A stretch of 64,000 nucleotides of DNA from Gammaproteobacteria bacterium (GTDB lineage: Bacteria; Pseudomonadota; Gammaproteobacteria; UBA4575), in NCBI GenBank assembly GCA_965243395.1, contig CBDEUS010000001.1:1056001-1120000 (forward strand). Reading direction: 5' to 3'. Made by a program: the position numbers and the translations under genes. Below are positions 8,687-49,127 of this stretch, in pieces (the stretch's first letter is position 1; each line of letters starts with the position of its first letter). A model generated the notes under the pieces. It ran no database searches, was not told the DNA's origin, and was given only the letters and a program-made list of their open reading frames with translations.

Positions 8687-8714
8687 GTTGCTGCTTTCGG
8701 CTAATAGCAGTCAT
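8687..8714. repeat. Palindrome P2
   Basis: GTTGCTGC-TTTCGGCTAATA-GCAGTCAT; overlaps the stop codon of the 8711-9166 gene. Confidence 0.6.
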
Positions 8715-9166
8715 AAAATCTCAAAGAAAATATGCCTTAGATAGATAATTGAATAAGGGATATCAAAAATAAATGAAAATAGCATTACAACAGTAATTAC
8801 GCCTGACCAGATTGAGAAAGCCGACAACTTCTTGGATAAGAACGGTCGTTTAGTTAGTAATAAATACAAAGATGGAGACCAGAAAATAACGTGGATTAAT
8901 GCGTTGAATCCCGCGAGCTTTAGCTGAACTAGACCAAATACAGATGAAAAAACCAAAGTCAAAAATCCTGCTATATAGCCACCAACTACCCAACGCGCAA
9001 TAGAATGTCGCTTAACAAAAAATATTCCGACTACAAAACAGGCTGTCGCTAACACTATCCAAATCATCACCCAAAGTGGTGTAGCTTCCATTCCTTGAGC
9101 ATCAAAAATTTCTAAAGCACGATAACCTTTTTGATAATCGATTGATTGTCCAAGTAGCTCAATCAT
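8711..9166 (-). CDS. Hypothetical membrane protein (about 4 TM)
   Basis: 151-aa ORF with several hydrophobic segments. Confidence 0.7.
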   Translation of the reverse strand: MIELLGQSIDYQKGYRALEIFDAQGMEATPLWVMIWIVLATACFVVGIFFVKRHSIARWVVGGYIAGFLTLVFSSVFGLVQLKLAGFNALIHVIFWSPSLYLLLTKRPFLSKKLSAFSIWSGVITVVMLFSFIFDIPYSIIYLRHIFFEIL

Positions 9167-9174
9167 TATTTTTG

Positions 9175-9240
9175 ATCACCTAACTTTAATCTGCTGCATC
9201 GTCCCTGATGGAAATCTTATTCGCACATCCATGTGCTCAC
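9175..9240 (-). repeat. Double-hairpin repeat R1
   Basis: Minus strand GTGAGCAC-ATGGAT-GTGCGAATAAGATTTCCATC-AGGGAC-GATGCAGCAGATTAAAGTTAGGTGAT; 53/66 identical to R2 without gaps; abuts the moaA stop. Confidence 0.8.
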
Positions 9241-10262
9241 TAACCGCCAATATATGACATCTCCACTTTTGGAAGCAAAACGGTTTCTGACGTTCTTAAT
9301 TCAGAGTAACGGTCATTTCGTTTTTTCCAAATAGCGCTAATCACTTCTTGGATATGATCTTCCTCTGCGCCTTCACGAAGGAGATGACGCAAATCTTTAC
9401 CTTGCGTAGCAAATAAGCAGGTATACAACTTTCCTTCTGCTGAAAGTCTTGCACGCGTGCAGGATTGGCAAAATGGTTGGGTCACGGATGAAATAATTCC
9501 AATTTCACCTCCACCATCTTTGTATTGCCAACGTTTGGCGACTTCTCCGTGGTAATTTGCTTCCGCAGGTTCGATAGGTAATTCCTGGTTTATTACATTA
9601 GAAATTTCTTTTGCCGAAAACACATCATCCATTTGCCATTGGTTGGTACTGCCGACATCCATGAATTCAATAAAGCGCAAGATAATTCCGCTGTTATGAA
9701 AATGTTTCGCCATTGGAAGAATAGAGTGTTCATTTACACCTTTTTTTACCACCATATTAATTTTAATGGGATCTAGACCTACAGTTTGCGCATGTTCAAT
9801 TGCAGTTAAAACTTTATCTACATCAAAAGCTACATCACTAATATTTTTAAATGTTTCATCATCTAGCGCATCTAGACTAATGGTTATGCGTTGCAACCCT
9901 GCACTTTTTAGTTGTTTAGCAACATCAGAAGTAAGCAATACACCATTTGTGGTTAAACTAATATCTTCAATACCATCAATCTTGGAAAGCTGTTGAATAA
10001 GGACAGGAAGATTTTTCCTTAATAAGGGTTCGCCACCTGTTAAACGTATTTTTTTCACGCCAAGTCGGGCGAATATTTTGGAGATTCTGGTAATTTCTTC
10101 AAAACTGAGTAAATCATCTCTGCGTAAAAACTCATATTCAGAATTAAAAACCTCTTTCGGCATACAATACGTGCAACGGAAGTTACAGCGATCCGTGACC
10201 GATATTCTTAGATCCCGAATAGGTCGTGATAAGGTGTCTTGAATTTGAGTATTTGTTTGCAT
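9240..10262 (-). CDS. moaA: GTP 3',8-cyclase (radical SAM)
   Basis: SVTDRCNFRCTYCMP, TGGEPLLR, FCQSCTRARL...C, C-terminal MSYIGG. Confidence 0.98.
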   Translation of the reverse strand: MQTNTQIQDTLSRPIRDLRISVTDRCNFRCTYCMPKEVFNSEYEFLRRDDLLSFEEITRISKIFARLGVKKIRLTGGEPLLRKNLPVLIQQLSKIDGIEDISLTTNGVLLTSDVAKQLKSAGLQRITISLDALDDETFKNISDVAFDVDKVLTAIEHAQTVGLDPIKINMVVKKGVNEHSILPMAKHFHNSGIILRFIEFMDVGSTNQWQMDDVFSAKEISNVINQELPIEPAEANYHGEVAKRWQYKDGGGEIGIISSVTQPFCQSCTRARLSAEGKLYTCLFATQGKDLRHLLREGAEEDHIQEVISAIWKKRNDRYSELRTSETVLLPKVEMSYIGG

Positions 10263-10343
10263 CGCAAAGTAAGCCAGTATCCAACTGATATTCTATCGAA
10301 TGGAAATTTTTAAAGGTATATCAAAGCATTAGACTAAAGAGAT

Positions 10344-11855
10344 ATGAATTCAGCTCAATTCAAGGTTATTTGGCTTATCACAGGCCCTATATTGGCTTTG
10401 GCAATCTATTGGTGGCTACCTGACCAATATATTGCTAGTGATGGTAAGAAAACACTCCTCACACATCCTGCCAAGGCCACCATAGCCTTGTTGGTGTGGA
10501 TGGCTACCTGGTGGTTGACCGAAGCAACTCATATCACAGTTACGGCATTACTTCCTATCGCATTGTTTCCATTATTTGAGGTGGCTTCCATAAAAGATGC
10601 AACAGCTCCCTATGCTTCTCATATTATCTTTTTGTTCTTAGGCGGCTTTATTATTGCTATTGCTATTCAGCGCTGGAAATTAGATAAACGCATCGCGTTG
10701 GGCATTCTCACAAAAATTGGTAGCTCTCCTTCAAGAATTGTAGGGGGTTTCATGTTGGCTACTGCTTTTCTAAGTGCCTTTATCTCAAATACCGCAACTA
10801 CAGCAATGATGCTACCAATTGGTTTAAGTGTTATCGCATTGCTAACAGGAAAAGAATTTAAACAACGCGCTTTTGCGACTTGTATTATGTTAAGCATTGC
10901 ATACGCCGCCAATATTGGAGGAATTGCAACCGTGATTGGTACCGCACCCAATCTATTTGTAGCTTCTTTTATTAGAGATGCAATTGATACACCTTTTCAG
11001 CAAGATATTAGTTTTTTGCAATGGTCTAAAGTTGGTGTGCCCGTTGTATGTGTTTTATTACCAATTGCTTGGTGGCTATTAACCAAGCTTATTTACAAAG
11101 TAGACAAAATTACATTGCAAAACTCTTCACAATCTCTGCTAGAACAAAAGCACGCACTCGGAAAAATGAGTTATGAAGAAAAAATGGTTTGCATGATTTT
11201 TTCTTTTACTGTTTTTTTATGGTTAAGTCGCACATTTCTACAAGGTTTAGAGTTTTCGTTCAACGAAAATAGCTATAAACCACTATTGGGTCTTACAGAT
11301 TCCAGTATTGCAATTTTTTCCGCTATTTTGTTATTTCTAATCCCGACCAAATCAACCAACGATTCCTTTATTTTGCAATGGGAGAATTTAAAAGAGTTAC
11401 CCTGGGGAATATTAATATTGCTAGGTGGAGGATTAAGTTTGGCAGCTGCTGTAAAAGCAAATGGTGTAACTGAATTTATTGGAGCGCAAGCTACGATTCT
11501 TTCAGTGTTACCACCATTGTTAATTCTTTTAGTTATTGTAACTGCTGTAGTCTTTTTAACCGAGCTCACTTCAAACACTGCGACTACGGCAACACTTGTA
11601 CCAGTTCTCGCCGCTATTGCCCCTGTTCTAAATTTACATCCTTATGTGCTCATCATACCTGCAGCTATTGCAGCAAGTTGTGCATTCATGTTGCCTATCG
11701 CAACACCGCCTAACGCAATTGTATTTGGATCAGGTCATATCTCAATGCAAGAGATGCGCAAAACCGGTTTTTGGTTGAATTTGTTAAGTTTGCTGATCCT
11801 CACCTCTCTAGCGTATGGATTAAGCACTTATTTAATAAAGATACTGGAAGCTTAA
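10344..11855 (+). CDS. DASS/SLC13 family Na+/dicarboxylate or sulfate symporter
   Basis: ISNTATT and TSNTAT (SNT motifs), IGTAPN, MLPIATPPNA; many TM helices. Confidence 0.92.
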   Translation: MNSAQFKVIWLITGPILALAIYWWLPDQYIASDGKKTLLTHPAKATIALLVWMATWWLTEATHITVTALLPIALFPLFEVASIKDATAPYASHIIFLFLGGFIIAIAIQRWKLDKRIALGILTKIGSSPSRIVGGFMLATAFLSAFISNTATTAMMLPIGLSVIALLTGKEFKQRAFATCIMLSIAYAANIGGIATVIGTAPNLFVASFIRDAIDTPFQQDISFLQWSKVGVPVVCVLLPIAWWLLTKLIYKVDKITLQNSSQSLLEQKHALGKMSYEEKMVCMIFSFTVFLWLSRTFLQGLEFSFNENSYKPLLGLTDSSIAIFSAILLFLIPTKSTNDSFILQWENLKELPWGILILLGGGLSLAAAVKANGVTEFIGAQATILSVLPPLLILLVIVTAVVFLTELTSNTATTATLVPVLAAIAPVLNLHPYVLIIPAAIAASCAFMLPIATPPNAIVFGSGHISMQEMRKTGFWLNLLSLLILTSLAYGLSTYLIKILEA

Positions 11856-11867
11856 AGAAATACTTAT

Positions 11868-12746
11868 TTACTTAACTCCGTATTTTTCTGACTGCTTATA
11901 CTTATCCTCCACCCCAATCAAATCGTTAAATTCTTCAAAGTTTAATAAATTGCTCTCCATTCCAAGCGTAGTACCATCATTGTGTAACTTGGTATAAATA
12001 TCATTCATGATTTTACCTGCAGCGTACAAGCCTGTAAGAGGATAAAGAATTAGATGAAACCCCATAGCAGCGAGTTCATCTTTTTGTAGTACGGGTGTTT
12101 TTCCACCCTCTATCATATTTGCAACATTCGGATGTGGTGATTCCTGACCAATCCTTTTTAACTGCTCTAGTGAACCCGGCGCTTCTACAAAACTTGCATT
12201 TGCACCAATTTCACGTGCAGCCTTTACTCTTGCGATCGCTTCATCTAATCCTAAAACCGCTTCTGCATCGGTGCGTGCAACAATAAAAAAATCATTTTCT
12301 CCTCTTGCATCCACTGCAGCCTGGATTTTATATAAGTATTCATCACGTTCGATTACTTTTTTATTACGCATATGTCCACATTTTTTAGGCCAGACTTGAT
12401 CTTCCAAAAAGCAACCCTTTGCGCCAGCATCGATTAATTGCCTAACGGTTCGATGAACATTAAGTGGATTTCCATAGCCTGTATCAGCGTCCACGATAAT
12501 AGGCATGGAAACACTACTGCATATTGCGCGTGCACGATCCACCACTTCAGTTTGTGTAAGCAAACCAAAATCGGGTTCGCCTATGGTCGCGGCGGCTAAT
12601 GAATAACCCGAGATAAACCCCATTGGAAACCCGACTTGTTCAGCTATTTTTGCAGAAAGTGTGTCGTAGATTCCGGGGAATGCTAAAGACCCTACTTCAT
12701 CTAACACACTTTGAATACTACTATTTGGAACGTTTTTATTAGACAT
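11868..12746 (-). CDS. Isocitrate lyase/PEP mutase family enzyme (PrpB- or 2,3-dimethylmalate-lyase-like)
   Basis: IVDADTGYG, EDQVWPKKCGH, ARTDA, NMIEGGKTP. Confidence 0.9.
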   Translation of the reverse strand: MSNKNVPNSSIQSVLDEVGSLAFPGIYDTLSAKIAEQVGFPMGFISGYSLAAATIGEPDFGLLTQTEVVDRARAICSSVSMPIIVDADTGYGNPLNVHRTVRQLIDAGAKGCFLEDQVWPKKCGHMRNKKVIERDEYLYKIQAAVDARGENDFFIVARTDAEAVLGLDEAIARVKAAREIGANASFVEAPGSLEQLKRIGQESPHPNVANMIEGGKTPVLQKDELAAMGFHLILYPLTGLYAAGKIMNDIYTKLHNDGTTLGMESNLLNFEEFNDLIGVEDKYKQSEKYGVK

Positions 12747-12871
12747 ATTTGTTAGCTCAGAGTTAGTTCTGTATATTAGTACACTGTATCGGAACTATCG
12801 AATTATCCACAAAATCTAAGTTAAATTCAGCGTACAATCTGCTTAGATCGCTAAAATTTTTACCTGCCAAA

Positions 12872-13381
12872 ATGACCATGAAACCCATATTTTCAAATTT
12901 AAAGATTCGGTTATCTCTATTTATTGCAATATTGCTACTTTGCAGTATTTCAATAGCATCCGACTGGACAGAGGTAAGAACATTAGAAGGCAAATTTACA
13001 ACTTTATCCCAACACTTTGAAAAAGATAAATGGACACTTGTAATGCTGTGGACTATGGATTGTGGGATTTGCCAGCGTGAATACCCTATTATTTCAGAAT
13101 TTCATGACAAGCATAAAGACACTAAGGCAAAAGTAATCGGGGTATCTTTAGACGGTTATTCTAAACTGGATAAAATTACTGAACATATTGAAGAGATGCC
13201 CATGACTTTTGGTAATCTCATCGGCGAACTTACGGTTGTTGCGTTTAATTATCAAACTGCTACCGAAGAGACTCTTCGTGGAACTCCTACTTTTTTAATG
13301 TTCAACCCGGACGGTTACTTAGTTGGTCACAACCCAGGACCTGTTAAACCTGAAGCACTTGAAGCATTTATTTCGCGATAA
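12872..13381 (+). CDS. Exported TlpA/ResA-like thioredoxin
   Basis: Signal peptide, WTMDCGIC (CxxC), GTPT cis-Pro motif. Confidence 0.85.
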   Translation: MTMKPIFSNLKIRLSLFIAILLLCSISIASDWTEVRTLEGKFTTLSQHFEKDKWTLVMLWTMDCGICQREYPIISEFHDKHKDTKAKVIGVSLDGYSKLDKITEHIEEMPMTFGNLIGELTVVAFNYQTATEETLRGTPTFLMFNPDGYLVGHNPGPVKPEALEAFISR

Positions 13382-13397
13382 AATTAGATCAACCAAA

Positions 13398-13763
13398 TCA
13401 ATTTCTATCTAAAGCATATTTAGCCAATACTTCTAGTTCTACATACTCCAGAACTGAGCTATGTGTTGCTTTTAAATAAATGTTTGGCGCTTTATTTTCT
13501 TCCAAAGCTTCGATCCAACGCTGCACACACAAACACCATTTATCACCGGGCTTTAATCCAGGAAAATCTGCATCCGGATAAGGCGTGGTTAAATCATTAC
13601 CTTTTGCTTTAGAAAATTCCAAGAATTCTTTTGTTACATTCGCACAAACAGTATGCATTCCTATATCATGTTCATCTGTATCACAACGCCCATTTCGATA
13701 ATATCCTGTCAGTAACTCTTCACAACAACTTTGCAAATCCCCACCAAGTACATTTTTTTGCAT
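13398..13763 (-). CDS. DUF2237 family protein
   Basis: NVLGG.L..C, TGYYRNG.C, HTVCA, GNDL.TP, PGLKPGDKWCLC. Confidence 0.9.
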   Translation of the reverse strand: MQKNVLGGDLQSCCEELLTGYYRNGRCDTDEHDIGMHTVCANVTKEFLEFSKAKGNDLTTPYPDADFPGLKPGDKWCLCVQRWIEALEENKAPNIYLKATHSSVLEYVELEVLAKYALDRN

Positions 13764-13786
13764 TCTATTTCCCTTTAGTTTTATTT

Positions 13787-14689
13787 TTAAAATCTAGCAA
13801 ATGATAATTTCTTTCGCTGTGCAATCGCAATTCCAAGCAATATTATAATCAATGCAATTATCGCATTAACACCTATCTTTTCATTTAAAAACATAACGCC
13901 AATTATAACGGCCCAAACAGGTATCAAATAATTTATCTGCGATAAAAATGATGGTCCTACTCTGGCAATAACTGCAAAATAAATAATTGTGGCTAATGCA
14001 GTGGGGAAAATTCCTAATAACAACAGAGAAACAAATTCAATACTGTTCACAGAAAAGTCCCAATCAAAATTTGATAAAAATACTATTGGCAACATAAGTA
14101 CACTGGCAATCAACAGCACTGCACCGGACATTGCAACAAAACTTTCTTTCGGTAGTTTTTTGGCAATTATTGTATTAATTGCATAGCTAACAGCTCCCCC
14201 TAAAATCGCTATCATTGCAAGCAACCTGGCCATATCATTTTCAAAATTTGCTAGCGCACTTTCACCAAACAAAACAAGTATTCCAATAAACCCTAAAATA
14301 AACCCAATGACTTTATTCAGCGACAGTTTTTCTCCAGCGACGAAAAAGTGCGCTAAAACAATAGTCGTTAAAGGCATGACGGCCATTAGAATTCCTGCAA
14401 TGCTGCTATCTACTGTTTGCTGGCCCCAGCTAATAAGGTAAAAAGGCAGACAATTACCAAAAAAGGCTAACGCAACTAACAAACCGACGCGCCCTTTTAT
14501 AAATGCAAAAGAATCACGTCTTAAAATCGAAACTAAAACCAAAAAAATAGCAGCAATAGTAATTCTTCCTCCAGCAACAACAGCAGGCGGATACTCCTGT
14601 ACAGAAATTTTGATAAGCATGAAGGCACTTCCAAACATGATGACGAGAGCCGCCATACCGAGCCAGTCTAGCGGCTTTGCATTATACAT
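13787..14689 (-). CDS. DMT/EamA family transporter
   Basis: About 10 TM helices in two EamA-like halves (PFYLISWG, YLIPVWA..IG..FLNE). Confidence 0.9.
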   Translation of the reverse strand: MYNAKPLDWLGMAALVIMFGSAFMLIKISVQEYPPAVVAGGRITIAAIFLVLVSILRRDSFAFIKGRVGLLVALAFFGNCLPFYLISWGQQTVDSSIAGILMAVMPLTTIVLAHFFVAGEKLSLNKVIGFILGFIGILVLFGESALANFENDMARLLAMIAILGGAVSYAINTIIAKKLPKESFVAMSGAVLLIASVLMLPIVFLSNFDWDFSVNSIEFVSLLLLGIFPTALATIIYFAVIARVGPSFLSQINYLIPVWAVIIGVMFLNEKIGVNAIIALIIILLGIAIAQRKKLSFARF

Positions 14690-14728
14690 TGTAAATAAGA
14701 ATCCCTAGAGATTAATTAGAAAATGCCA

Positions 14729-16189
14729 TTAGTAGCGGATTAATACATCATAACTTAATGTAGTTTTTCCTTCAGCAGGAATTTTAATTCTCCACTCTGC
14801 AGTGCCTGCTGCTACTTTTTTATGTTTATGACTTTCTTGCTTCATTTTCCAATCACCAGGAATAGGTTCTTGAACTACTACTTCAATATCTTCGTCCTTA
14901 GCATTTTTAAGATCGATTTGGAAGCTCGCTGTATATGCGTAGTTATATTTCCCTATTGCATGGGCCTTCTTGAATTGAGTTTGTTTCTTGTCAGCCGTAA
15001 CATCAAATGCATCGCCCAGTTTTAACTTTACCTCTTCATTTTTAGGCGTATGATCAATATGGTCCTCACCTATAAATTGCGCATTGCCTGATTTATCGTT
15101 TTTATATACGCGCACAATACCTTTAGGTAAAGGAAGGCCTAGATTGGATTTTTTATCGTTTTTGAGCTCTACAAAAACCCCTACTTTCATTTTTTGACCA
15201 ATTGATCCATAAGAACTCTGATAGTAGTAATTTTGACCTTTAAGCAAAAATTCTTTTTTAACCGGAATTTTGGTCGCACTTAATAATGAAACTTGTTTTG
15301 TTTGATTTTCTTTTATAGTTGTCGGTCGTTGTAATGTATATAAGTGATATTCAAACAAAGCCTCTTCAACCATATCAGCTTCTGCAGCCACCGACTTTTG
15401 AGCAAGCATTTCAAATCTCCTTTTAGCTTCTCTAAAATCATCTTGAACTCGATTTACATCACCTGCGACCAATTGTAATTTGGCATTTTTGTATGTAGCA
15501 CCACTTTGATTATTTAACGTTACCCAGCCTGTCAGATCAATAAACTGATCTGATTCATCAAGCTCGGCTACATAATCAGCCTTCCAAGACAGTCCACCAG
15601 TTAAATAACTAAGCTGTAATTGTTGGGCTTTTGATGTTGCACTATTAAGTTCCATCACCAGTGTCGGACGGTCGCGTAAATTGCCTGGGACTTCGTCGAA
15701 TACAATGCGTCCTGGAACACCCGTCTCAATGCGGTCTCCGATTTTTAATACCACTCCATTATTTACACTCAATACAATAGCATCGAGTAATTTTTCTTTG
15801 CCAGTCGTGGGGTGTGTTTTAACAATCTTAACTTTCTTGCCGACATATTTTTCTAATAGTTTTTGAGGCGTTAACAAATCAAAATCGAAATTTTGCTCAA
15901 TTAAACGAAAACCATCTGAATAATTCAGACTGCGGAGTAAGGCAGTTTCAGGACGTATTTGAGCGCTTACCTCGCGAAATGCAAGTTTATTAAAACCACT
16001 ATCTAAGCGAATGGTGCGCACATCTTTTACCAGGGCTAGTTGATCGTTATAAATCGTAACCGCCACTTCGGTTTGATCCTGTAATGTACTTCGATATTCA
16101 GTTACATGAGTTTTAGCGCTCACCTGACCCAATATGAGGCTGAATAGAAAAGTAATAATGAATACAGACTTGGTTTTAGCTCGTTTCAT
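14729..16189 (-). CDS. Exported DUF4139 domain protein
   Basis: VTIYND.ALV, EQNFDFDLL, SYLTGGLSW.ADY, YHLY.L, IGED.IDHTP. Confidence 0.85.
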   Translation of the reverse strand: MKRAKTKSVFIITFLFSLILGQVSAKTHVTEYRSTLQDQTEVAVTIYNDQLALVKDVRTIRLDSGFNKLAFREVSAQIRPETALLRSLNYSDGFRLIEQNFDFDLLTPQKLLEKYVGKKVKIVKTHPTTGKEKLLDAIVLSVNNGVVLKIGDRIETGVPGRIVFDEVPGNLRDRPTLVMELNSATSKAQQLQLSYLTGGLSWKADYVAELDESDQFIDLTGWVTLNNQSGATYKNAKLQLVAGDVNRVQDDFREAKRRFEMLAQKSVAAEADMVEEALFEYHLYTLQRPTTIKENQTKQVSLLSATKIPVKKEFLLKGQNYYYQSSYGSIGQKMKVGVFVELKNDKKSNLGLPLPKGIVRVYKNDKSGNAQFIGEDHIDHTPKNEEVKLKLGDAFDVTADKKQTQFKKAHAIGKYNYAYTASFQIDLKNAKDEDIEVVVQEPIPGDWKMKQESHKHKKVAAGTAEWRIKIPAEGKTTLSYDVLIRY

Positions 16190-16344
16190 ATGTAATCCTT
16201 TATATTTAGTAGATTTACATACTTAAACGATAGAAATAGCCATATGGGTTAAAATAAGGCTAAATTATTTTACAGACACAAAACAACACACTAAATTTGA
16301 GTAACGGAACCTCTAATTATCTCTCTTGAGTATTTATCTTCTCT

Positions 16345-16824
16345 ATGAATCAAATCTTAATTATTGCTGGAATTGTAGGCATTTTGCTGTTCCTAAGATG
16401 GCTACGTAAACAACCAAAAAATAAGCAAATACAAGCCATTCTTATATTTGCGGCTATTGTATTGATCATAATGGCCGCCACAGGAAGACTACATTGGCTA
16501 TTTGCGATCATTGCAGCTGCTGTAGCAATGTTTCAGAAATTTGCAGGTCTATTGAGGTTTCTTCCTTTTCTACAAAGAATTTTTACAAGATCTCCTACTG
16601 AGAACTCCTCTTATGAAGCCAGCAATAGCCAAAATTCCAACATGACAATTGAGGAGGCATGCAAAGTATTAGGTATTGAAAAAGATGCTACTGAAGAAGA
16701 AATTATTGAAGCGCACCGAAAATTAATTCAAAAAATTCATCCTGATCGCGGCGGAAATGATTATCTCGCTACAAAAATTAATCAGGCAAAAGAGTTTATG
16801 CTTAAAAATTTACATAAAAGATGA
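16345..16824 (+). CDS. Membrane-anchored J-domain co-chaperone
   Basis: N-terminal TM helices; C-terminal J domain with HPD (KIHPDRGG). Confidence 0.9.
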   Translation: MNQILIIAGIVGILLFLRWLRKQPKNKQIQAILIFAAIVLIIMAATGRLHWLFAIIAAAVAMFQKFAGLLRFLPFLQRIFTRSPTENSSYEASNSQNSNMTIEEACKVLGIEKDATEEEIIEAHRKLIQKIHPDRGGNDYLATKINQAKEFMLKNLHKR

Positions 16825-16840
16825 AAGGAATATACTAATT

Positions 16841-19099
16841 ATGTTTTGGAAAAAACAATGGAAGAAACTCCAAAACAAAGATGGAAGTGAAGAATATGAA
16901 ATTCCTGCCTACAGTAAAGATGGCGGACATATTAAATCACTTGAAAGGCAAGGAGGTTTAACAACTAGCGCAACATATGGAGGAATGGGTGTTCGTGAAC
17001 TGCAATTGCGAATGGAGCTTATTGTTGAACCTATATTATCAAAGCAAAACAGTGTTTTTGAACCTGCAAAAGAACTCGCTGTATTCTCTAAAGTTGATCA
17101 AGATCGATTTTTACAGTCAGTCGAAAAAATATCTAAAACCGATACTGCTCTAGCTTTTAAGTTTTGCCATTTTGGGCCACTAAGCTTGCAATTAGTAGAC
17201 GAAGAAAATTGGAACGATTGGACAAGTGAAATCCTAACTGTTTATAACAAAGAAGGACTAGATTCAGCAATAAATACAATAAAGGATGTCAATCACTACA
17301 TTGAATCCTATACACATGCTCCTTCAAACGTTGCCTTAAATGAAGTTTCAAGAATTTTAGAAAGTTTCATTATTGGATTAAGCGGAAGACAACTATCTAT
17401 TGAAGCGAGCGAAAGTTTTTATACTGATACAGAATCAGTAAGACTGCCTGAAAACGTATCTCAATTTGATCGTCAAGAAGATAATTTTGCCTTATATAAA
17501 GCCATGGCGGTTCACCAATGGGCACAGACCTGGTTTGGTACTTGGAGAATGAATATAGATGCCATGGCTAAAACATATCAAGACCCAGATCGTGCACTGA
17601 AATTATTTCATAAGTTAGAAACTATAAGATTAGACGCTTGCATTAAACGCGAACTACCAGGTATTGCAAAAACCGTAAAAAATTTATTTGGAGAACTGGA
17701 TACAACAAAACTATCAAAAAAATGGCAGTTTGCTATCGAAAAAATGCGGGAAAGTGATACCACTGTAAGAGACACTTTTTTTCTCTTAGAAACAATCTAT
17801 AAAGAAAATGATTCACCTGAAGATAGGCCATACCAAGGTGAATTAAGGCCACGAGAAACCTGGAAAACAATTCAAGAAAGAACAGATAAAGAAAGAGAAT
17901 TATTTAAAGCTAAACTTGCAGAGCTAAAAAATGATCTACAGCAAAAATCATCTGAGGCTTCTATGAGTAATGATTCAGATGAAAATGATGATGGCTTCTC
18001 TATAGATGTAAATGAAAATGATTCCATGTCAGAGGGCTATAACATCGAACTACGCTTTGATGATGAAGCAGTTGAGCCTCCAGAAGAGTTGCAGGAGCTA
18101 TTAGAGTCAATTTTACAAGATCTAGGTGAAATTCCTGATGATTATTTATTACCTAGCACATATCAAACTGATGATATTGAAGATGAAAATGACGATCAGA
18201 ATTTATCCCCTTCATTAGACAATGAAGAAAATGTTTATATTTATGATGAATGGGATCATTCAAGGCAAAAATATAGAAAGGAATGGTGCTACTTAAAAGA
18301 ATTAGAAATTAAACCTGTTTATGACAATTTTGCTAACTCGACTATACATAAGCATCGAAACTTACTAAAACATTTACGTAGAACATTTGAAGCTCTGCGT
18401 GAAGACGATAAACGTCTAAAACGGCAACCATATGGAGATGACATAGATTTAGATGCTGTCATTGAGTCCTATACAGATATTAAAATAGGGCTCGAAGCCT
18501 CACAAAATCTTTTTACCAAATCCAGAAAGATCGATCGAAATATAGCGGTAATGTTTATGATTGATATGAGCGGATCAACTGCTGGTTGGATAAATGAAAT
18601 GGAACGCGAAGCTTTGGTTTTATTATGTGAGTCGCTGCAACTATTAGGCGATCGTTATGCAATCTATGGTTTTTCCGGTATTACGCATGAGCGTTGCGAG
18701 CTCTATGTCATTAAGGAGTTTGACGAAGGATATGATGACCAAGTTAAAGCGCGTATTAGCGGTATTCAACCACAAGACTATACTCGCATGGGCGCCGCTA
18801 TTCGGCATTTAACAAAAAAACTTCATCAAGTAGAAGCGCGCACGAAATTACTCATTACACTTTCTGATGGAAGACCCGATGACAAAGATGGGTATCGTGG
18901 ACCATATGGAATTGAAGACACAAGACGCGCCTTAATAGAAGCAAAATTTTTAGGTATACATCCTTTTTGCATAACGATAGATGAAGAAGCAATGGATTAT
19001 TTACAACATATGTATGGAGCAGTTAACTTTGCTGTAATTGATCATGTCGATAAATTGCCTTATAAAGTATCTGATATCTATCGACGTATCACAGTTTAA
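16841..19099 (+). CDS. CbbO/NorD-family VWA adaptor protein
   Basis: YDEWD...Y...WC, GDDIDLDA, MIDAS motif DMSGS, YTRMGAAIRH, LSDGRPDD. ATG at 16841 avoids overlap with the J-domain gene. Confidence 0.9.
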   Translation: MFWKKQWKKLQNKDGSEEYEIPAYSKDGGHIKSLERQGGLTTSATYGGMGVRELQLRMELIVEPILSKQNSVFEPAKELAVFSKVDQDRFLQSVEKISKTDTALAFKFCHFGPLSLQLVDEENWNDWTSEILTVYNKEGLDSAINTIKDVNHYIESYTHAPSNVALNEVSRILESFIIGLSGRQLSIEASESFYTDTESVRLPENVSQFDRQEDNFALYKAMAVHQWAQTWFGTWRMNIDAMAKTYQDPDRALKLFHKLETIRLDACIKRELPGIAKTVKNLFGELDTTKLSKKWQFAIEKMRESDTTVRDTFFLLETIYKENDSPEDRPYQGELRPRETWKTIQERTDKERELFKAKLAELKNDLQQKSSEASMSNDSDENDDGFSIDVNENDSMSEGYNIELRFDDEAVEPPEELQELLESILQDLGEIPDDYLLPSTYQTDDIEDENDDQNLSPSLDNEENVYIYDEWDHSRQKYRKEWCYLKELEIKPVYDNFANSTIHKHRNLLKHLRRTFEALREDDKRLKRQPYGDDIDLDAVIESYTDIKIGLEASQNLFTKSRKIDRNIAVMFMIDMSGSTAGWINEMEREALVLLCESLQLLGDRYAIYGFSGITHERCELYVIKEFDEGYDDQVKARISGIQPQDYTRMGAAIRHLTKKLHQVEARTKLLITLSDGRPDDKDGYRGPYGIEDTRRALIEAKFLGIHPFCITIDEEAMDYLQHMYGAVNFAVIDHVDKLPYKVSDIYRRITV

Positions 19100-19109
19100 C
19101 TAATTTAGT

Positions 19110-20270
19110 ATGCAAAACAGTAAACGGCTGGATGCTGTTCAAGCTCCTATTATTCCTTACATAGGTGAACTAAGCCGTAATAACCCGGGCACTATTTCGT
19201 TTGGACAAGGCATTGCGTTTTATGGCCCTCCCAAACAAGCATTTGAATATGTGCAAAAACACCTTGATGATGATTCGATTAACCGTTATGGGCCAGTTGA
19301 AGGCATTCCTGAGCTGCAACTAGCACTGATTAACAAATTAAGCTCTGTAAACAAAATAATTATTAACGATGACAATGCCGTTGTTGTTACCGCCGGATCA
19401 AATATGGCTTTTAATACCGCCATTCTTGCTATTACAGACCCTGGTGATGAGGTTATTTTAACTCTCCCTTATTATTTTAATCATGAAATGTCTTTAGTTA
19501 TGGAACGCTGCGTTCCGGTATTGATACCAAGCCAAGAAAATTTTCACCTAGACATTAATAAAATAGAAGCTGCTATAACTAAAAAAACAAAAGCCATTGT
19601 TACGATTAGTCCAAACAATCCAAGTGGGGCGGTCTACTCAAAAAAAGAATTAATTGAAATAAATACTTTGTGCAAACAACATGGTATTTATCATATTAAT
19701 GACGAAGCCTATGAAGATTTTTATTATGAGAGTTACCAACATTTTTCGCCCGCATCCATAGAAGATGCGCGCTCACATACCATTTCATTATTCTCATTTT
19801 CTAAAGGTTATGGTTTTGCCGGCTGGCGAATTGGTTATATGGTCATTCCTGTGACATTACTTGCTGCGGTTAAAAAAATTCAAGATACAATATTAATTTC
19901 GCCCCCTATTATCTCTCAATATGCCGCAATTGGTGCATTAAGCGCAGAGACATCTTTTCTCGAAGATAAACGCATCACCATGAATACAAAACGCGATTTA
20001 GTTATTAATAAATTAAGTAAATTAAAACATTTAAATAAACAACCCATTTCTGAAGGAGCTTTCTATACTCTCTTAAGTGTAGACTCTAATCAAAACGACA
20101 TGGCTCTAGCGGAACAATTAATTAAAAAATACAAAGTAGCTACTATTCCAGGCTCAGCATTTGGAATTGAATCGGGATGTTATTTGCGGTTGTCTTATGG
20201 CGCTCTATTAGATAATGAAATTAATGAAGGCCTCAATAGAATTATTCAAGGCCTAAACGAATTAATGTGA
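19110..20270 (+). CDS. PLP-dependent aminotransferase class I/II
   Basis: SPNNPSG, DEAY, SFSKGYGFAGWRIG (PLP lysine). Confidence 0.92.
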   Translation: MQNSKRLDAVQAPIIPYIGELSRNNPGTISFGQGIAFYGPPKQAFEYVQKHLDDDSINRYGPVEGIPELQLALINKLSSVNKIIINDDNAVVVTAGSNMAFNTAILAITDPGDEVILTLPYYFNHEMSLVMERCVPVLIPSQENFHLDINKIEAAITKKTKAIVTISPNNPSGAVYSKKELIEINTLCKQHGIYHINDEAYEDFYYESYQHFSPASIEDARSHTISLFSFSKGYGFAGWRIGYMVIPVTLLAAVKKIQDTILISPPIISQYAAIGALSAETSFLEDKRITMNTKRDLVINKLSKLKHLNKQPISEGAFYTLLSVDSNQNDMALAEQLIKKYKVATIPGSAFGIESGCYLRLSYGALLDNEINEGLNRIIQGLNELM

Positions 20271-20633
20271 TTCTGGCATAAGCGATGAATGATGATCTAT
20301 GATTTTAAATTCCCCATTATCTTGCTTATAAATCACAAACGAAAAGCGTGCAGGGCATTTTACTAACTCTTCACTTTGATAGGAAAATTCATACTCGCCA
20401 GAATAAATTGCAGCCTGACCAAAACTTCTTACATTAGTGGCGCCAAAATTCACCTTTAAATCTTGCATTAAAAACAAAGCTTCAAAATATTCATGAATCA
20501 ATTTATGGTTGTCACGTATAATTTCTGAAAAAGTTCCCCACAACACAGCATTCTCTGCATACAAATTTACAATACCATCCAGGTCGCAATTATTTAAACA
20601 AGCTTCCCATTTTCGGAGTATGTTCTCTGGCAT
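20262..20633 (-). CDS. NTF2/SnoaL-fold protein (COG4875-like, iota-carbonic-anhydrase-like)
   Basis: LY...AVL.GT.S, YF..L, SG.Y.F, ARFSFV, C-terminal IIDHHSSLMPE. Confidence 0.75.
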   Translation of the reverse strand: MPENILRKWEACLNNCDLDGIVNLYAENAVLWGTFSEIIRDNHKLIHEYFEALFLMQDLKVNFGATNVRSFGQAAIYSGEYEFSYQSEELVKCPARFSFVIYKQDNGEFKIIDHHSSLMPESH

Positions 20634-20641
20634 TGTTGAAA

Positions 20642-22132
20642 TTACCTGCCCTTAAATATCGAACCCATTATTCCACGAATAATGGATTGACCTAACCTTG
20701 AGGTTACAACTTTAGTTGCACTCTTAATTACAGTTTGTGTAGTTGTTTCACGTCTTGAACGCGATTTGCGTTTACTAGCAGAACGTTTAGGTTTATTTGC
20801 TTTATATTCTCTTTCTTTATCAATTTGTTTTTCTGCCTTTTCAGCGGCATCTTCTGTGCGTGCTCTCAATTTTTCAGCCGCACTTTCACGATCCACACGT
20901 TTATCGTAAACGTCTTTTATTGGACTCTTGTCAAATACTTCTTTGCGCTCAGGTTTGGTCGCGGGCCCCATACGAGATTCTGGGGGACGGATTTTTGTTT
21001 GCTGCACTATCGTAGGCACACCATCAGGGTCTAGAACCGATACCAAAGCCTCACCCACACCTAATTCAGTAATTACTTTTTCTGTATTTAAATCTGGGTT
21101 TTCTCTAAAAGTTGTTGCAGCCGCTTTAACAGCTTTTTTATCGCGTGGTGTATATGCACGCAAGGCGTGTTGAATTCGATTACCAAGTTGCCCTAACACT
21201 TCATCCGGAACATCAATAGGATTTTGGGTTACGAAATATACGCCGATACCTTTGGAGCGAATGAGCCTTACAACCTGCTCTACTTTCTGGATTAAAGCTT
21301 TTGGAGCATCGTTAAACAACAAATGAGCTTCATCAAAGAAAAACACCAATTTGGGTTTATCCGGATCACCCACTTCTGGGAGCTCTTCAAATAATTCTGA
21401 TAAAAGCCAAAGTAAGAATGTTGAATAGAGGCGTGGATTTTGCATCAATTCATCTGCTGCAAATAAATTGATGTATCCTTGACCTTCCTCCGTCGTACGC
21501 ATCAGGTCTTTTAGTTCCAATGCGGGCTCGCCAAAAAAATTCTTTGCGCCTTGCTGCTCGAGAACTAATAATCGTCTTTGTATGGCCCCTATCGATTGTT
21601 TACTGACATTACCGTAGTCCACAGTAAATGATGCTGCATTCTCACCAACGTGATTAAGAATAGCTCGTAAATCCTTGAAATCTAGTAGCAATAGCCCTTG
21701 ATCATCCGCTAATTTAAAAGCGATATTTAAAACGCCTTCTTGTGTGTCGTTTAAATCTAGCAGGCGCGACAGAAGCAATGGTCCCATTTCAGAAATTGTG
21801 GTGCGAACGGGATGACCTTGCTTGCCGAAAATATCCCAGAAGATGGTCGGAAACCCTCGAGGAGAATAACCTTCTACCCCCGTTTTAGACGCACGCTCTA
21901 CAAGTTTAGGTTTCTCTTCAATCGCTTGACTGATCCCACTTAAATCACCTTTTATATCGGCTGCAAATACTGGCACACCGGCTTGGGAAAAGCCTTCTGC
22001 CAGAATCTGTAAGGTAACGGTTTTACCTGTCCCGGTTGCACCCGCGATCAAGCCATGCCGGTTAGCACGCGAAAGAAAAAGACGCTGTACAGCATCGCTC
22101 TTTCCAACAACGATTGTATTTTCTGAAATCAA
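20642..22132 (-). CDS. DUF853 / YjgR HerA-like ATPase
   Basis: [15 protein letters not shown] (Walker A), FFDEAHLLF (Walker B), RSKG.GVYFVTQ. Confidence 0.93.
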
Positions 22133-22472
22133 AGGATTTTTCTATTATTTTTATGGTCTTTATTCTAGTACGCTAAAGGGCCTACTGTGAGAACTTAGCT
22201 TCTGCCAGCTTATCGTATTTGAGTAGCCCTTCATGCTGCTTTATTAGTAAAAGCATAGCAAGTTAAATATAGTCCTTACAATCAATTGCTTACAACTATA
22301 TACTGAATAATTTAAGGCAAAATAAGGCAAAAACCAAAATAGATCACTTCACTGATCAAGTTTGAAGTATAAAATTTAATCTATATTAATCATCTATAAA
22401 GATTCGCACCAAGTACTGGAATATCTAGTTATCAAAATCGCATAGCAAAAACGCTGACCTAATAATACTATT

Positions 22473-24548
22473 TTGAAAAAACTATCACACAAATTGAAGT
22501 TTCTAAGCATTGTTGTAATTACTTTTTGTATCACCAGCAGTATAAGTTACAGCAATACAAACGATATCCTTGCGCCAGAGAAACAACATAATCGTGCAAC
22601 CAAACTTATTGCGCATTTTTTAGATAAGTATCACTACAAAGAATTTAATATTAACAACTCGCTTTCAAGCGAAATTCTTAATGCTTATCTTGAAGCTCTA
22701 GATCCTAATCGAAGCTACTTCTATCAAAAAGATATTAATAGTTTTCAAATTTTTCGATTCAAACTTGATGAAGCCATTACAAAACCCGAACTCAGCGCCC
22801 CATTTCAAATATTTCGCTTGTATCAAGCACGTGTTGAAGAACGTGTGTTATTTGCTCTAGAGCTCTTAGATACTAAATTTAATTTTAAAATTGATGAAGA
22901 GCTCAGATTTGACCGCATTGACTTACCTTGGGCAAAAAATAGTAATGAATTAAACGAAATATGGCGCAAACGCGTTAAAAATGATGTTCTCACTTTAAAA
23001 CTAGCAGACAAGAAGCCTGCAGAAATTAAAGAAACGTTAGAAAAACGTTATAACGGAATCGCAAAACGAAGTACTCAAGTAGATGCGGAAGACGTTTATC
23101 AACTATTTATTAATGCTTTTGCTAGCACCTTAGAACCACACACTAATTATTTATCGCCAAGAACATCTGAAAATTTCGAAATTCGCATGAGTCTTTCCCT
23201 AGAAGGAATTGGTGCACTATTACGAACAGATGGAGAATATACTGTAGTAGAAAAAGTAATTCCTGGTGGTCCAGCAGACTTAAGTGATTTACTTCATAGC
23301 TCGGATAGAATCGTTGGTATATCACAAGATGGTGATAAAGAATTTAAAGATGTAGTTGGCTGGCGATTAGAAGAAGTCGTAGCACTAATTCGTGGTGCAA
23401 AAGGTACTAAGGTAAATTTACAAATATTACCTGGTGACGAAGGTCAAGCCGCGAAAATAAAAGAAATTCAAATCACTCGCGATAAAATTAAATTAGAAGA
23501 ACAAGCTGCCAAAAGCGAAATCATTGAAATAGAGGAAGATTCTTTAAAGTATAGAATTGGCATTATAGATGTGCCAACTTTCTATATAGATTTTGCAGCT
23601 TATCAACGTGGTGATAAAGATTACCGTAGTACAACACGTGATGTAGATAATCTTATCACTGATCTTAAAGAACAAAAGATCGATTCACTTATACTTGATC
23701 TACGTGGTAACGGCGGCGGTTCACTTACTGAAGCGACTCAGCTGGCCGGATTATTCATTGATGAAGGACCTATTGTTCAAGTTCAGGATTCCAGTGGACA
23801 CATTGAAGTTCATCGTGATCGTGATTCAAAAATTTCTTATTACGGCCCTTTAGTTGTTTTAGTAGATCGATATAGCGCTTCAGCATCTGAAATTGTTGCT
23901 AGTGCCATTCAAGATTACCATCGAGGTATCGTCGTAGGTGAAACTACTTTTGGTAAAGGTACGGTACAGCAGTTAGTTGACTTAAATAACTTCAGCACCA
24001 GTGATGATGAAAAACTTGGCCAACTGAAAGCCACAATCGCTCAATACTTTCGAATTAACGGTAGCAGTACTCAACATAGTGGTGTTATTCCAGACATAGA
24101 CTTTCACACACTTTTTGAAGATGAAGAATATGGTGAACGTGCATTAAAAAACGCATTACCCACAAACACTATCACGCCTGTTAAACACCACTATGGCGAC
24201 ATAGACGAAAGAATCATTATACAAACTGCCGAGATGCACAGAAATAGAACTCACACAGATGAAAAATTTAATTCCCTTATCGAAATGTTTCAGCTTGATT
24301 ATGATGTAAGAAACCAGAAAACCATTTCTTTATTAGAGTCCACACGAAAAGCTGAATATCAACGCGTTGAATCAACCCGCTCAGAGTACGAGGCGTTGCT
24401 AAAAGACACTGAAGAAAACCTAAACAAACTGGATGACGACGAAGCGTTTATAGATGTGCTCTTAGACGAAACGGCACATATTGCAACCGATCTTGCCAAG
24501 CTATTAAAAGCACAAAACTCAAGTTCCTTTGTTTATAGAAATTATTAA
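22473..24548 (+). CDS. prc: Tail-specific (C-terminal processing) protease
   Basis: PDZ GIGA, DLRGNGGGSL, SASASEI, TFGKGTVQ. Confidence 0.95.
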   Translation: MKKLSHKLKFLSIVVITFCITSSISYSNTNDILAPEKQHNRATKLIAHFLDKYHYKEFNINNSLSSEILNAYLEALDPNRSYFYQKDINSFQIFRFKLDEAITKPELSAPFQIFRLYQARVEERVLFALELLDTKFNFKIDEELRFDRIDLPWAKNSNELNEIWRKRVKNDVLTLKLADKKPAEIKETLEKRYNGIAKRSTQVDAEDVYQLFINAFASTLEPHTNYLSPRTSENFEIRMSLSLEGIGALLRTDGEYTVVEKVIPGGPADLSDLLHSSDRIVGISQDGDKEFKDVVGWRLEEVVALIRGAKGTKVNLQILPGDEGQAAKIKEIQITRDKIKLEEQAAKSEIIEIEEDSLKYRIGIIDVPTFYIDFAAYQRGDKDYRSTTRDVDNLITDLKEQKIDSLILDLRGNGGGSLTEATQLAGLFIDEGPIVQVQDSSGHIEVHRDRDSKISYYGPLVVLVDRYSASASEIVASAIQDYHRGIVVGETTFGKGTVQQLVDLNNFSTSDDEKLGQLKATIAQYFRINGSSTQHSGVIPDIDFHTLFEDEEYGERALKNALPTNTITPVKHHYGDIDERIIIQTAEMHRNRTHTDEKFNSLIEMFQLDYDVRNQKTISLLESTRKAEYQRVESTRSEYEALLKDTEENLNKLDDDEAFIDVLLDETAHIATDLAKLLKAQNSSSFVYRNY

Positions 24549-24552
24549 ATGA

Positions 24553-24618
24553 GTGAGCGCAAGAATGCGCGAGTAAGAGTTGCATCTGGGATGATACAAG
24601 AGATTAAAGTTAGATGAT
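24553..24618 (+). repeat. Double-hairpin repeat R2
   Basis: GTGAGCGC-AAGAAT-GCGCGAGTAAGAGTTGCATC-TGGGAT-GATACAAGAGATTAAAGTTAGATGAT, 4 nt after the prc stop. Confidence 0.8.
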
Positions 24619-24624
24619 TTCCAT

Positions 24625-24652
24625 ATGACCGCTTTCGACTGATCGCGGTTAA
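24625..24652. repeat. Palindrome P3
   Basis: ATGACCGC-TTTCGACTGATC-GCGGTTAA; spacer resembles that of P2. Confidence 0.6.
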
Positions 24653-24777
24653 CCACGTGTTACATTTCACCGATGGGGCGTATAAATAATTGGTCCAAGT
24701 TATTTACTTATCTATTTAGAACCAACAATTTTAGCCGTTAAAGATAATTGATCAAATTTCAATTACTTTAGCTATAT

Positions 24778-25224
24778 ATGGATACTACGATACATCAGTT
24801 AGTCTACATCAGTGCTGCAAAGCACGAATTCTCAGAAGAAGAATTACAGGATTTATTAATTAAAGCGCGTACTAATAACCAAAAGCTTGGAATTTCTGGG
24901 ATGCTATTATTTCATCAAGGGTCATTCATTCAAGCCTTAGAAGGCCCCAAAGAAGATGTTGAAAGACTATATGAAAAGATAGGAGAAGATCGACGTCATA
25001 CTGAATCCAGAGTGTTATTTCGTGGCGACTTAGATGAACGAGATTTTGATGGTTGGTCTATGGGATTCTATCGATCAAATCAAAGTACCAAAGAGAACCT
25101 AGATGGATTTCATCGATTTTTAAAAACAGGTTTTCGTAGAGAAGTTAAAGAGGATGAAAGTCTTGCGCGTAAAGCACTTTTACAATTCAGAGAGGGAAAT
25201 TGGAGACAAAGTGTAGAAACATAG
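24778..25224 (+). CDS. Short BLUF-domain blue-light photoreceptor
   Basis: LVYIS (Tyr), RTNN, ISGMLL, FIQALEG (Gln), DRRH, F.GWSM (Trp-Met). Confidence 0.95.
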   Translation: MDTTIHQLVYISAAKHEFSEEELQDLLIKARTNNQKLGISGMLLFHQGSFIQALEGPKEDVERLYEKIGEDRRHTESRVLFRGDLDERDFDGWSMGFYRSNQSTKENLDGFHRFLKTGFRREVKEDESLARKALLQFREGNWRQSVET

Positions 25225-25227
25225 CTT

Positions 25228-25255
25228 AATGTCCGCTTTGGGTTGTGTATACATT
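25228..25255. repeat. Palindrome P4 (degenerate right arm)
   Basis: AATGTCCGC-TTTGGGTTGTGT-ATACATT, 3 nt after the BLUF stop. Confidence 0.5.
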
Positions 25256-25263
25256 TTAAGTAT

Positions 25264-25327
25264 ACCTGACTTTATATTGTTCACGTCATCCATGACGTGA
25301 CTCGTATTCGCACTTCCCTGTGCTCAC
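25264..25327 (-). repeat. Double-hairpin repeat R3
   Basis: Minus strand GTGAGCAC-AGGGAA-GTGCGAATACGAGTCACGTC-ATGGAT-GACGTGAACAATATAAAGTCAGGT; inverted relative to R2. Confidence 0.8.
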
Positions 25328-25500
25328 CACTTATCGTGAAAACTTACATCAATATTATTCATGTAAGACATAAGTAAAAAATTATCAGTCCAAGTGTCTG
25401 TAAATCCAAACCCTTTGGATAATATAGAGTATTAATGCTTAGCTTTTAATCACACCGGCCGCTTAAGATGTTAGCACCACTCTGTTAAAGGGAGTTAACA

Positions 25501-49112: not shown

Positions 49113-49127
49113 TTTGGTGAGCACAAT

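Follow-up and report, generated by a model that had tools for sequence, protein, structure and literature searches.

The window analysed here is a stretch of 64,000 nucleotides from a Gammaproteobacteria bacterium of the UBA4575 lineage (assembly GCA_965243395.1, contig CBDEUS010000001.1, positions 1,056,001 to 1,120,000), whose genome (G000) comprises 2.58 Mb on 2 contigs with 38% G+C. It carries three copies, R1, R2 and R3, of a double-hairpin repeat that we named DH, together with weak or degenerate copies of its 28-nt partner palindrome, named P (Table 1). DH is not a plain repetitive extragenic palindromic (REP) element but one module of a mosaic intergenic repeat system specific to this lineage. 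At the DNA level, comparison of the genomes shows that DH spreads, is replaced and brackets swappable genes. The reading that we put forward, and to which we give about an even chance of being correct, is that of a recombination-prone mosaic repeat whose transcript is predicted to form a two-site clamp for CsrA in 3' untranslated regions (3' UTRs). Its RNA-level part is inferred from the match of both hairpins to the CsrA optimum, in which the free positions of the repeat coincide with the N of the motif, from the conserved CsrA of the host and from the co-transcription of copies fused to stop codons.

All three copies were confirmed on re-reading of the sequence, at the places and on the strands reported in a preliminary description of the window. 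The same holds for the likeness of R1 and R2, which an inverted-repeat search returned as 67-nt arms with 81% complementarity, for the compensatory stem changes (GCAC/GUGC versus GCGC/GCGC; CAUC/GAUG versus CGUC/GACG) and for the six loops, those of R2 being AAGAAU (degenerate) in the first hairpin and UGGGAU in the second. The whole-genome nhmmer profile of R1–R3 recovered the three copies with E values of 1e-19 to 3e-21, and its iteration converged on 34 copies in the genome. A covariance model, which the preliminary description had proposed along with a genome-wide copy count, was built from these 34 and returned the same 34 and one weak overlapping match. The repeat is real, far beyond chance, and forms a structured family.

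The DH consensus is TA/GTGAGCAC-ATGGAT-GTGC-GAATAWGAGTT-GCATC-AKGGAT-GATGC-AACAGATTAAAGTTAGGT. The module is about 62–68 nt long and is composed of 5' GUGAG, hairpin 1 (4 bp), the linker CGAAUAWGAG, hairpin 2 (5–6 bp) and a variable tail, usually followed by a spacer and then by the 28-nt P; both hairpins carry the hexaloop A-N-G-G-A-N. Standard pairs occupy 88.2% of 339 pair cells in the 34 copies, as compared with 72.6% after shuffling (0 of 500 shuffles reached the observed value) and 15–49% with slid partners. Changes on both sides were found at 10 of 10 stem pairs, and the same two hairpins were predicted by RNAalifold. In five of the 34 copies the left arm and loop of hairpin 1 are duplicated over 14 nt. 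Coding of a small peptide by DH was ruled out by reading, since stops occur in all three frames at variant-dependent places.

A different repeat was noted at C2:1,045,757-1,045,875 (L162), where a 40-nt unit occurs twice directly behind the stop of a gene. Each unit consists of GAAGGGAGAAC and a GCGC-AUGGAU-GCGC hairpin of the same form as DH hairpin 1, and the two units are followed by a degenerate DH-like stretch. It may be related to the DH family or be its precursor.

To describe its distribution, 41 genomes were searched, the window's own included. The 14 further genomes of the genus all carried the DH family (4–69 matches each), as did one other genus of the family (29 matches); another genus had two weak matches. 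There were none in the remaining 8 genera of the family or in 16 genomes that each stood for another family of the class. An exact-pattern scan over 185,579 species genomes gave 58 loci, all in metagenome-assembled genomes. These, together with 11 of the 12 loci from the 41-genome search, make up the relatives' set of 69 loci, with 83 model matches, 75 of them distinct. The hosts are an uncultured gammaproteobacterial group of marine type. The second (sister) genus has an unrelated tail but retains GUGAG, the linker (there CGAAUGAGAG), the A-N-GGA-N loops and the stems, 9 of 10 stem pairs showing double changes. A single locus under a Bacteroidetes label had no model match and was taken as chance. 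It should be mentioned that two true copies (L066 and L074; 75.6 and 79.7 bits) lie in a metagenome bin titled with an unrelated actinobacterial genus; the L074 copy has the same place and score as a copy in G006, a genome of this genus (L040), so the label of the record looks wrong.

Both consensus hairpins, ACAUGGAUGU and UCAGGGAUGA, fit the published optimal RsmE/CsrA site, given as A/UCANGGANGU/A in the excerpts of PMC6849547 and PMC5864733 that were available. Their loops are closed by C-G, and in the alignment the two GGA motifs are 26 nt apart. A single CsrA dimer can bridge sites about 10–63 nt apart, a range within which the DH spacing falls. The GGA loops, on which the CsrA proposal of the preliminary description depended, are conserved over the full set of copies in this genome (first loop, 24 of 34 copies; second loop, 28 of 34), and 9 and 17 of the 34, respectively, have the complete 10-mer motif. 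Among the relatives' distinct copies, the first base is A in 66 of 72 cases in loop 1 (A11) and in 63 of 75 in loop 2 (A37), while the second base is free (T40/G14/A14/C3 in loop 1 and G23/T32/A19/C1 in loop 2), these four columns being ones that the search pattern had left unfixed. In the sister genus, GGA was present in 30 of 32 first and 24 of 29 second script-parsed loops, in alignments that were fitted to a GGA-containing model and lean that way. Of 102 ANGGAN hexaloop hairpins in the intergenic DNA of this genome, 32 belong to DH.

The genome has one csrA gene, the presence of which had been a point to check, and its product of 63 aa has conserved RNA-contact regions. Compared with 1vpz_A (solved RsmA), 7 of 56 aligned residues differ, and residues 1–13 and 40–48 are identical. 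The available part of PMC5864733 places the RNA-binding regions of CsrA at residues 2–7 and 40–47; the published contact regions are therefore covered in the host protein. Outside the window, at C2:355,890-356,040 (L161:290-440), some 150 nt are conserved and non-coding. This region contains five GGA motifs, of which three lie in hairpin loops (AAGGAU, ACGGAA and AGGAU; hexa- and pentaloops, the hexaloops being of the A-N-GGA-N type seen in DH), and a closing stem followed by a U run. It was found in 13 of the 14 other genus genomes with 70–91% identity and is a likely sponge small RNA (sRNA) of Csr/Rsm type of this lineage. Apart from two tRNAs, Rfam gave nothing relevant around this candidate and the csrA locus. 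A lead based on a GacA box was dropped, as the single perfect palindrome lies within a coding region and no GGA-rich RNA comes behind it. No Rfam family reached the gathering score in the window, and nothing relevant was found around R2/R3 at E values up to 10, so DH did not prove to be an already described Rfam family; RF00018 was absent from the genome, over the whole of which the RsmY and RsmZ models were not run.

As to position, the stop of a co-oriented open reading frame (ORF) lies within −26 to +13 nt of the first base of DH in 22 of the 34 copies (own ORF map), and in 18 of 34 an ORF of at least 118 aa ends at −16 to +5. The usual junctions are TA/G or G/TGA, that is, DH supplies or overlaps the stop codon. 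A copy fused to the stop of a co-oriented gene must be co-transcribed with that gene. Within the window, R1 begins at a sense stop codon and R2 4 nt after one, as described before and confirmed on the ORF map. A 340-aa moaA-like ORF (9240..10262, minus strand) has a TAG stop whose G is also the first base of R1, and R2 follows a 691-aa prc-like tail-specific protease ORF that ends at 24548. By the orientation of the neighbours, 14 copies are sense and 6 antisense in spacers of tandem genes, 12 lie between convergent and 2 between divergent genes. A raw count of 26 of 34 copies with the 5' neighbour on the same strand was set aside, because convergent spacers give 'same' automatically and the count overstates the sense bias. 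In relatives with a clearly coding upstream flank, this flank was on the same strand in 30 cases and on the other in 7 (unclear in 30). GTGAGY alone was not enriched behind stop codons (13 versus 10–11 for control hexamers) in a test where the DH position filter, maybe imperfect, tagged just 9 copies, fewer than expected.

Comparison shows that DH-P units lie at gene ends, often as outward-facing inverted pairs around accessory genes, and that sister genomes differ at them in content, orientation or copy subtype. Under the proposed reading, the DH RNA would offer two consensus CsrA sites 26 nt apart, enough for one dimer to clamp, and each copy would turn the 3' end of its host mRNA into a binding site for CsrA, which might thereby be titrated or might control the fate of the 3' end or the downstream cassette genes. 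More speculatively, hairpin 1 starts 4–7 nt after the stop, where the terminating ribosome would have to melt it, and CsrA binding might then depend on the translation load of the host gene.

A number of observations weigh against this reading. The stems are thermodynamically weak (single-copy folding z of 0.15, −1.27 and −2.35); the structure thus rests on covariation and not on stability. In 107 distinct copies, stem mismatches are G-U in 28 cases versus A-C in 23, which gives no sign that selection acts on the sense RNA. GUGAG and the linker, both as conserved as the loops, are left unexplained by CsrA binding. The sense bias in tandem-gene spacers is just the 14 versus 6 given above, and the sense 3'-UTR placement claimed in the preliminary description, which stood for 22 of 34 copies in this genome, was less general elsewhere: in the sets of the relatives and of the sister genus, only 18 of 69 and 4 of 32 copies, respectively, abut a long ORF. 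GGA is retained equally well (13 of 16 loops) in copies whose 5' neighbour lies on the opposite strand, and R3, which is antisense to both neighbours, is present at the same site in 8 species. Eighteen of the 69 relatives' copies sit inside P palindromes. Genome-wide, the 10-mer motif is not enriched (245 found versus 254 expected). The csrA gene occurs in 30 of 31 genomes of the family, genera without DH among them, so its co-occurrence with DH is uninformative. Finally, the finding was picked for its loop motif, and a chance resemblance among many scanned repeats is possible.

P consists of the arms ATGWCYGCT/AGCRGWCAT around an asymmetric 10-nt centre of two types. It is present in 86 places of the genome, 10–70 nt downstream of many DH copies, and a shared spacer motif (GGTTGGAA...) joins DH to P and P to P. 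The palindrome is concentrated in arrays of small co-oriented genes, with one or two P between each. Two such arrays, at C1:232,000-236,500 and C2:535,000-544,000 (L163 and L164), contain 7 and 14 genes, all but one co-oriented, with junctions of about 110 nt made up of P, the GGTTGGAA spacer and P. Sixteen of the 21 products have no Pfam family; two nucleases and one immunity protein of Rap1a type are among the rest. These arrays look integron-like, without an integron integrase: the best TIGR02249 match had 83 bits versus a cut-off of 265, and a GTTRRRY core was not recognised by eye in the junctions.

The left arm and centre of P stand directly before DH in 18 of 69 relatives' copies (8 of 2000 random positions), and a full P follows DH in 31 of 69 (39 of 2000); with the same strict patterns, the figures in G000 are 1 of 34 before and 8 of 34 after. 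DH copies within P lie between its centre and its right arm, with the left arm repeated. The closed genome G001 contains three-unit head-to-tail DH arrays (L097, L090 and L104), and a two-unit array is present at L061, behind a canonical terminator of the upstream gene. The three-unit arrays have a period of about 81–92 nt. In all of these arrays each unit comprises the P left arm and centre and then DH, one complete P closes the array, and 4–6 GGA hairpins stand in a row.

Orthologous sites were also compared. The C-terminus of the moaA-like gene (...MSYIGG) and the position of its stop are the same in 12 species, and a sense DH follows the gene in only the three closest (G000, G012 and G002) of the 12 loci; a fourth species has a degenerate antisense DH there. 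At the R3 site, the stems of the 8 orthologues vary in a compensated way (GCAC, GUAC, GCGC; CAUC, CAAC, CGUC), GGA is kept in 6 of 8 first and 7 of 8 second loops, and the tail cannot be aligned. In G000 a BLUF gene lies between R2 and R3. The orthologous DH sites of the sister species G012 bracket other DNA, and in G001 the two outer genes of this locus are just 9 nt apart. The BLUF gene of G012 lies in another inverted DH-P bracket, 24 kb from the R2/R3 site. It belongs to an insert of about 870 nt between convergent genes (L215:654-1524), composed of DH, P, BLUF, P, a spacer and an inverted degenerate DH; the matching site of G000 (window 49113-49127) is a 15-nt spacer with just TTTG-GTGAGCAC-AATT. 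The cargoes seen between inverted DH-P ends were ordinary genes and no transposases.

For 15 copies of G012, flank homology of at least 120 nt to G000 was found at 13 loci, at most of which it ends at DH or P or shortly beyond. Often a locus is occupied by a different DH subtype (34–45 of 66 positions identical versus flanks of 84–90% identity), one DH unit is inverted between the two genomes, and one own copy has lost 26 nt. In the R2 orthologue of G012 (L137:2147-2214), the hairpin 2 loop is ATCCAT, the exact complement of ATGGAT, in unchanged stems; a loop inversion like this would be expected of DNA hairpin or cruciform events. The junctions that were read showed no target-site duplication. 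RAYT, the REP-associated tyrosine transposase of Y1 type (PF01797), is absent from the window's own genome and was found in 1 of the 14 other genus genomes, G001, where it was ruled out as the driver, no DH or P lying within 1.5 kb of it. Since DH-P units lie at points where sister genomes differ, they spread and are exchanged by a recombination process that is not RAYT-based. The REP-like mobile repeat of the preliminary description was thus borne out in part: DH is genus-wide, intergenic, hairpin-forming and mosaic with P, while RAYT is missing and no replication-strand bias was found.

The main rival explanation, which we consider somewhat unlikely, is purely DNA-level. The hairpins would form in single-stranded or cruciform DNA and serve as the site of a recombinase or transposase that moves DH-P cassettes; GUGAG, the loop bases and the linker would be protein contacts on DNA, and the CsrA likeness would be coincidental. 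This explanation would accommodate the loss of sister-genome homology at or inside DH or P, the subtype swaps and the inverted unit, the BLUF gene in DH-P brackets at two loci in two species with an 'empty' site that keeps only GTGAGCAC, the ATCCAT loop, and both the position of DH inside P with a repeated left arm and the arm-loop duplication in 5 of 34 copies. It also agrees with the near equality of G-U and A-C mismatches, with the conserved GUGAG and linker, for which CsrA does not account, and with the equal upkeep of antisense copies. On the other hand, no candidate enzyme was found (the Y1 transposase being away from the repeats and no integron integrase passing the cut-off), target-site duplication was not seen, and replication-strand bias by GC skew is absent (16 copies with the leading strand, 18 against), although single-strand HUH elements usually show such a bias. 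Moreover, the loops, the closing pairs and the spacing would all have to fit the CsrA optimum by coincidence. The two levels may be combined: it is conceivable, and in our opinion unlikely, that DH-P units are recombination sites of a new gene-cassette system without integron integrase, with DH doubling as the CsrA clamp. Such a system would plug a BLUF sensor, nucleases, immunity proteins and many ORFans behind the stop codons of core genes, and it would tie read-through expression and the free CsrA pool to the Csr circuit and to host-gene translation.

Two further explanations act at the RNA level. DH may be a generic REP-like element that, without CsrA, blocks 3' exonucleases or slows the terminating ribosome, lowering expression. 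REPs of E. coli close to stop codons are reportedly associated with lowered expression, 22 of 34 copies lie at or a few nt from stop codons, and the mosaic with the longer palindrome P recalls bacterial interspersed mosaic elements (BIMEs). We hold this to be improbable, as stems of 4–6 bp are weak blocks, the retention of A, G, G and A in the loops while the stems change is not accounted for, and only 18 of 69 relatives' copies abut an ORF. Highly improbable, in turn, is a set of multicopy sRNA genes in which every DH and its downstream P would be an independent Rsm-like sRNA, transcribed from a promoter of its own and terminated at P. R3 with its 40-nt upstream block, kept in 8 species with no sense gene in front, would suit such genes, as would the L061 array behind a canonical terminator and a combined size of DH and P like that of known Rsm sRNAs; most copies in this genome, though, overlap a stop codon and thus leave no room for a promoter, promoter-like sites around R2/R3 are not above chance (3 found versus 3.9 expected), no terminator-like site was called there, and P has no clear U run.

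Among the closest known systems, DH resembles the REP/BIME elements of enterobacteria and pseudomonads (REPtrons with RAYT), which are likewise short imperfect palindromes in tens of intergenic copies, mostly at gene 3' ends, with mosaics, tandem clusters and a conserved short motif 5' of the hairpin. In REPs this motif is a GTAG-type tetranucleotide; GTGAG before hairpin 1 (T4 in 73 of 75, A6 in 75 of 75) is similarly placed and not identical in sequence. Unlike REPs, DH has no RAYT, consists of two short hairpins with sequence-conserved loops instead of one long stem, lacks replication-strand bias and forms inverted pairs that bracket swappable genes. With CsrB, RsmY, RsmZ and paired CsrA sites of mRNAs it shares A(N)GGA hexaloops closed by C-G, a spacing that a dimer can bridge and tandem arrays of 4–6 hairpins, and a canonical CsrA is encoded by the host, as is a distinct, conserved Csr-like sRNA candidate; in contrast to them, DH is a dispersed repeat and no single-copy regulated sRNA gene, is fused to the ends of housekeeping genes (moaA-like, prc-like) and has no Rfam match. 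Integron attC cassettes resemble the DH-P system in their small, mostly unannotated co-oriented genes parted by structured palindromes, in site structure kept more than sequence and in cargo that differs between close relatives. They differ in having an integrase, one long attC hairpin instead of two hairpins and P, and one attI, whereas DH brackets are scattered behind many core genes. Cassettes of the dif-module type, flanked by inverted recombinase sites, offer the same likenesses. Miniature inverted-repeat transposable elements (MITEs), such as the Correia elements of Neisseria, are also short non-autonomous border repeats with inverted terminal modules, and those of Correia type carry regulatory or RNA-processing signals and can alter the expression of neighbours; DH, however, shows no target-site duplication and no cognate transposase, and it also occurs singly and head-to-tail.

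If the DH RNA binds CsrA, a repeat family would have copied a high-affinity site of a global regulator onto dozens of mRNA 3' ends, an undescribed route for rewiring or buffering the Csr network. In full-text literature searches joining CsrA with REP or MITE terms, the papers found were an Rfam database update and a review on nucleoid-associated proteins and sRNAs. The CsrA proteins of the host and of E. coli hardly differ, which makes the claim for the RNA inexpensive to test. Apart from CsrA, the DH-P brackets mark places where sister genomes exchange small accessory genes and point to a new cassette-shuffling mechanism in an uncultured gammaproteobacterial lineage.

Table 1. DH and P copies and associated features in the window.
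Feature	Position in window	Strand	Description
P, weak copy	8689..8716 (C1:1064691-1064714, E 0.008)	-	ATGACTGCT-centre-AGCAGCAAC
R1 (DH copy)	9175..9242	-	hairpins GCAC-AUGGAU-GUGC and CAUC-AGGGAC-GAUG
R2 (DH copy)	24553..24618	+	left end of inverted DH pair; site kept in G012
P, degenerate	24625..24653	+	directly after R2; resembles the P family, below its nhmmer threshold
BLUF-domain gene (PF04940, E 1.4e-31)	24778..25224	+	cargo between R2 and R3
P half-site	25228..25248	-	…CCCAAAGCGGACATT on minus strand; after R3 on R3's own strand
R3 (DH copy)	25264..25329	-	right end of inverted pair; loops AGGGAA/AUGGAU
GTGAGCAC (first 8 nt of a DH)	49117..49124	+	alone in 15-nt spacer between two convergent genes

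At the R1 locus the order is gene, DH, small ORF and P: the tail of R1 is 9 nt from the next ORF start, and the ORF after R1 (151 aa) ends in a TGA stop that the weak P copy overlaps. Contigs from four DNA runs, available as short pieces only, contained no joint that skips a DH; their loose ends at 9240/9242 and 9165-9202 coincide with repeat borders, nothing more. R3 has no sense ORF in front; its neighbours are the BLUF gene and a 120-aa gene that faces it and is real, being conserved in 9 of 10 loci.

It should also be mentioned that the 40-nt block kept in 8 species just 5' of R3 (window 25330-25400, minus strand) may be a promoter, a small ORF or a leader; it is readable as the end of a short frame (...NIDV..DKW) with its stop within DH. 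The block lies about 175 nt upstream of, and antisense to, the gene of the conserved 120-aa protein, which is secreted.

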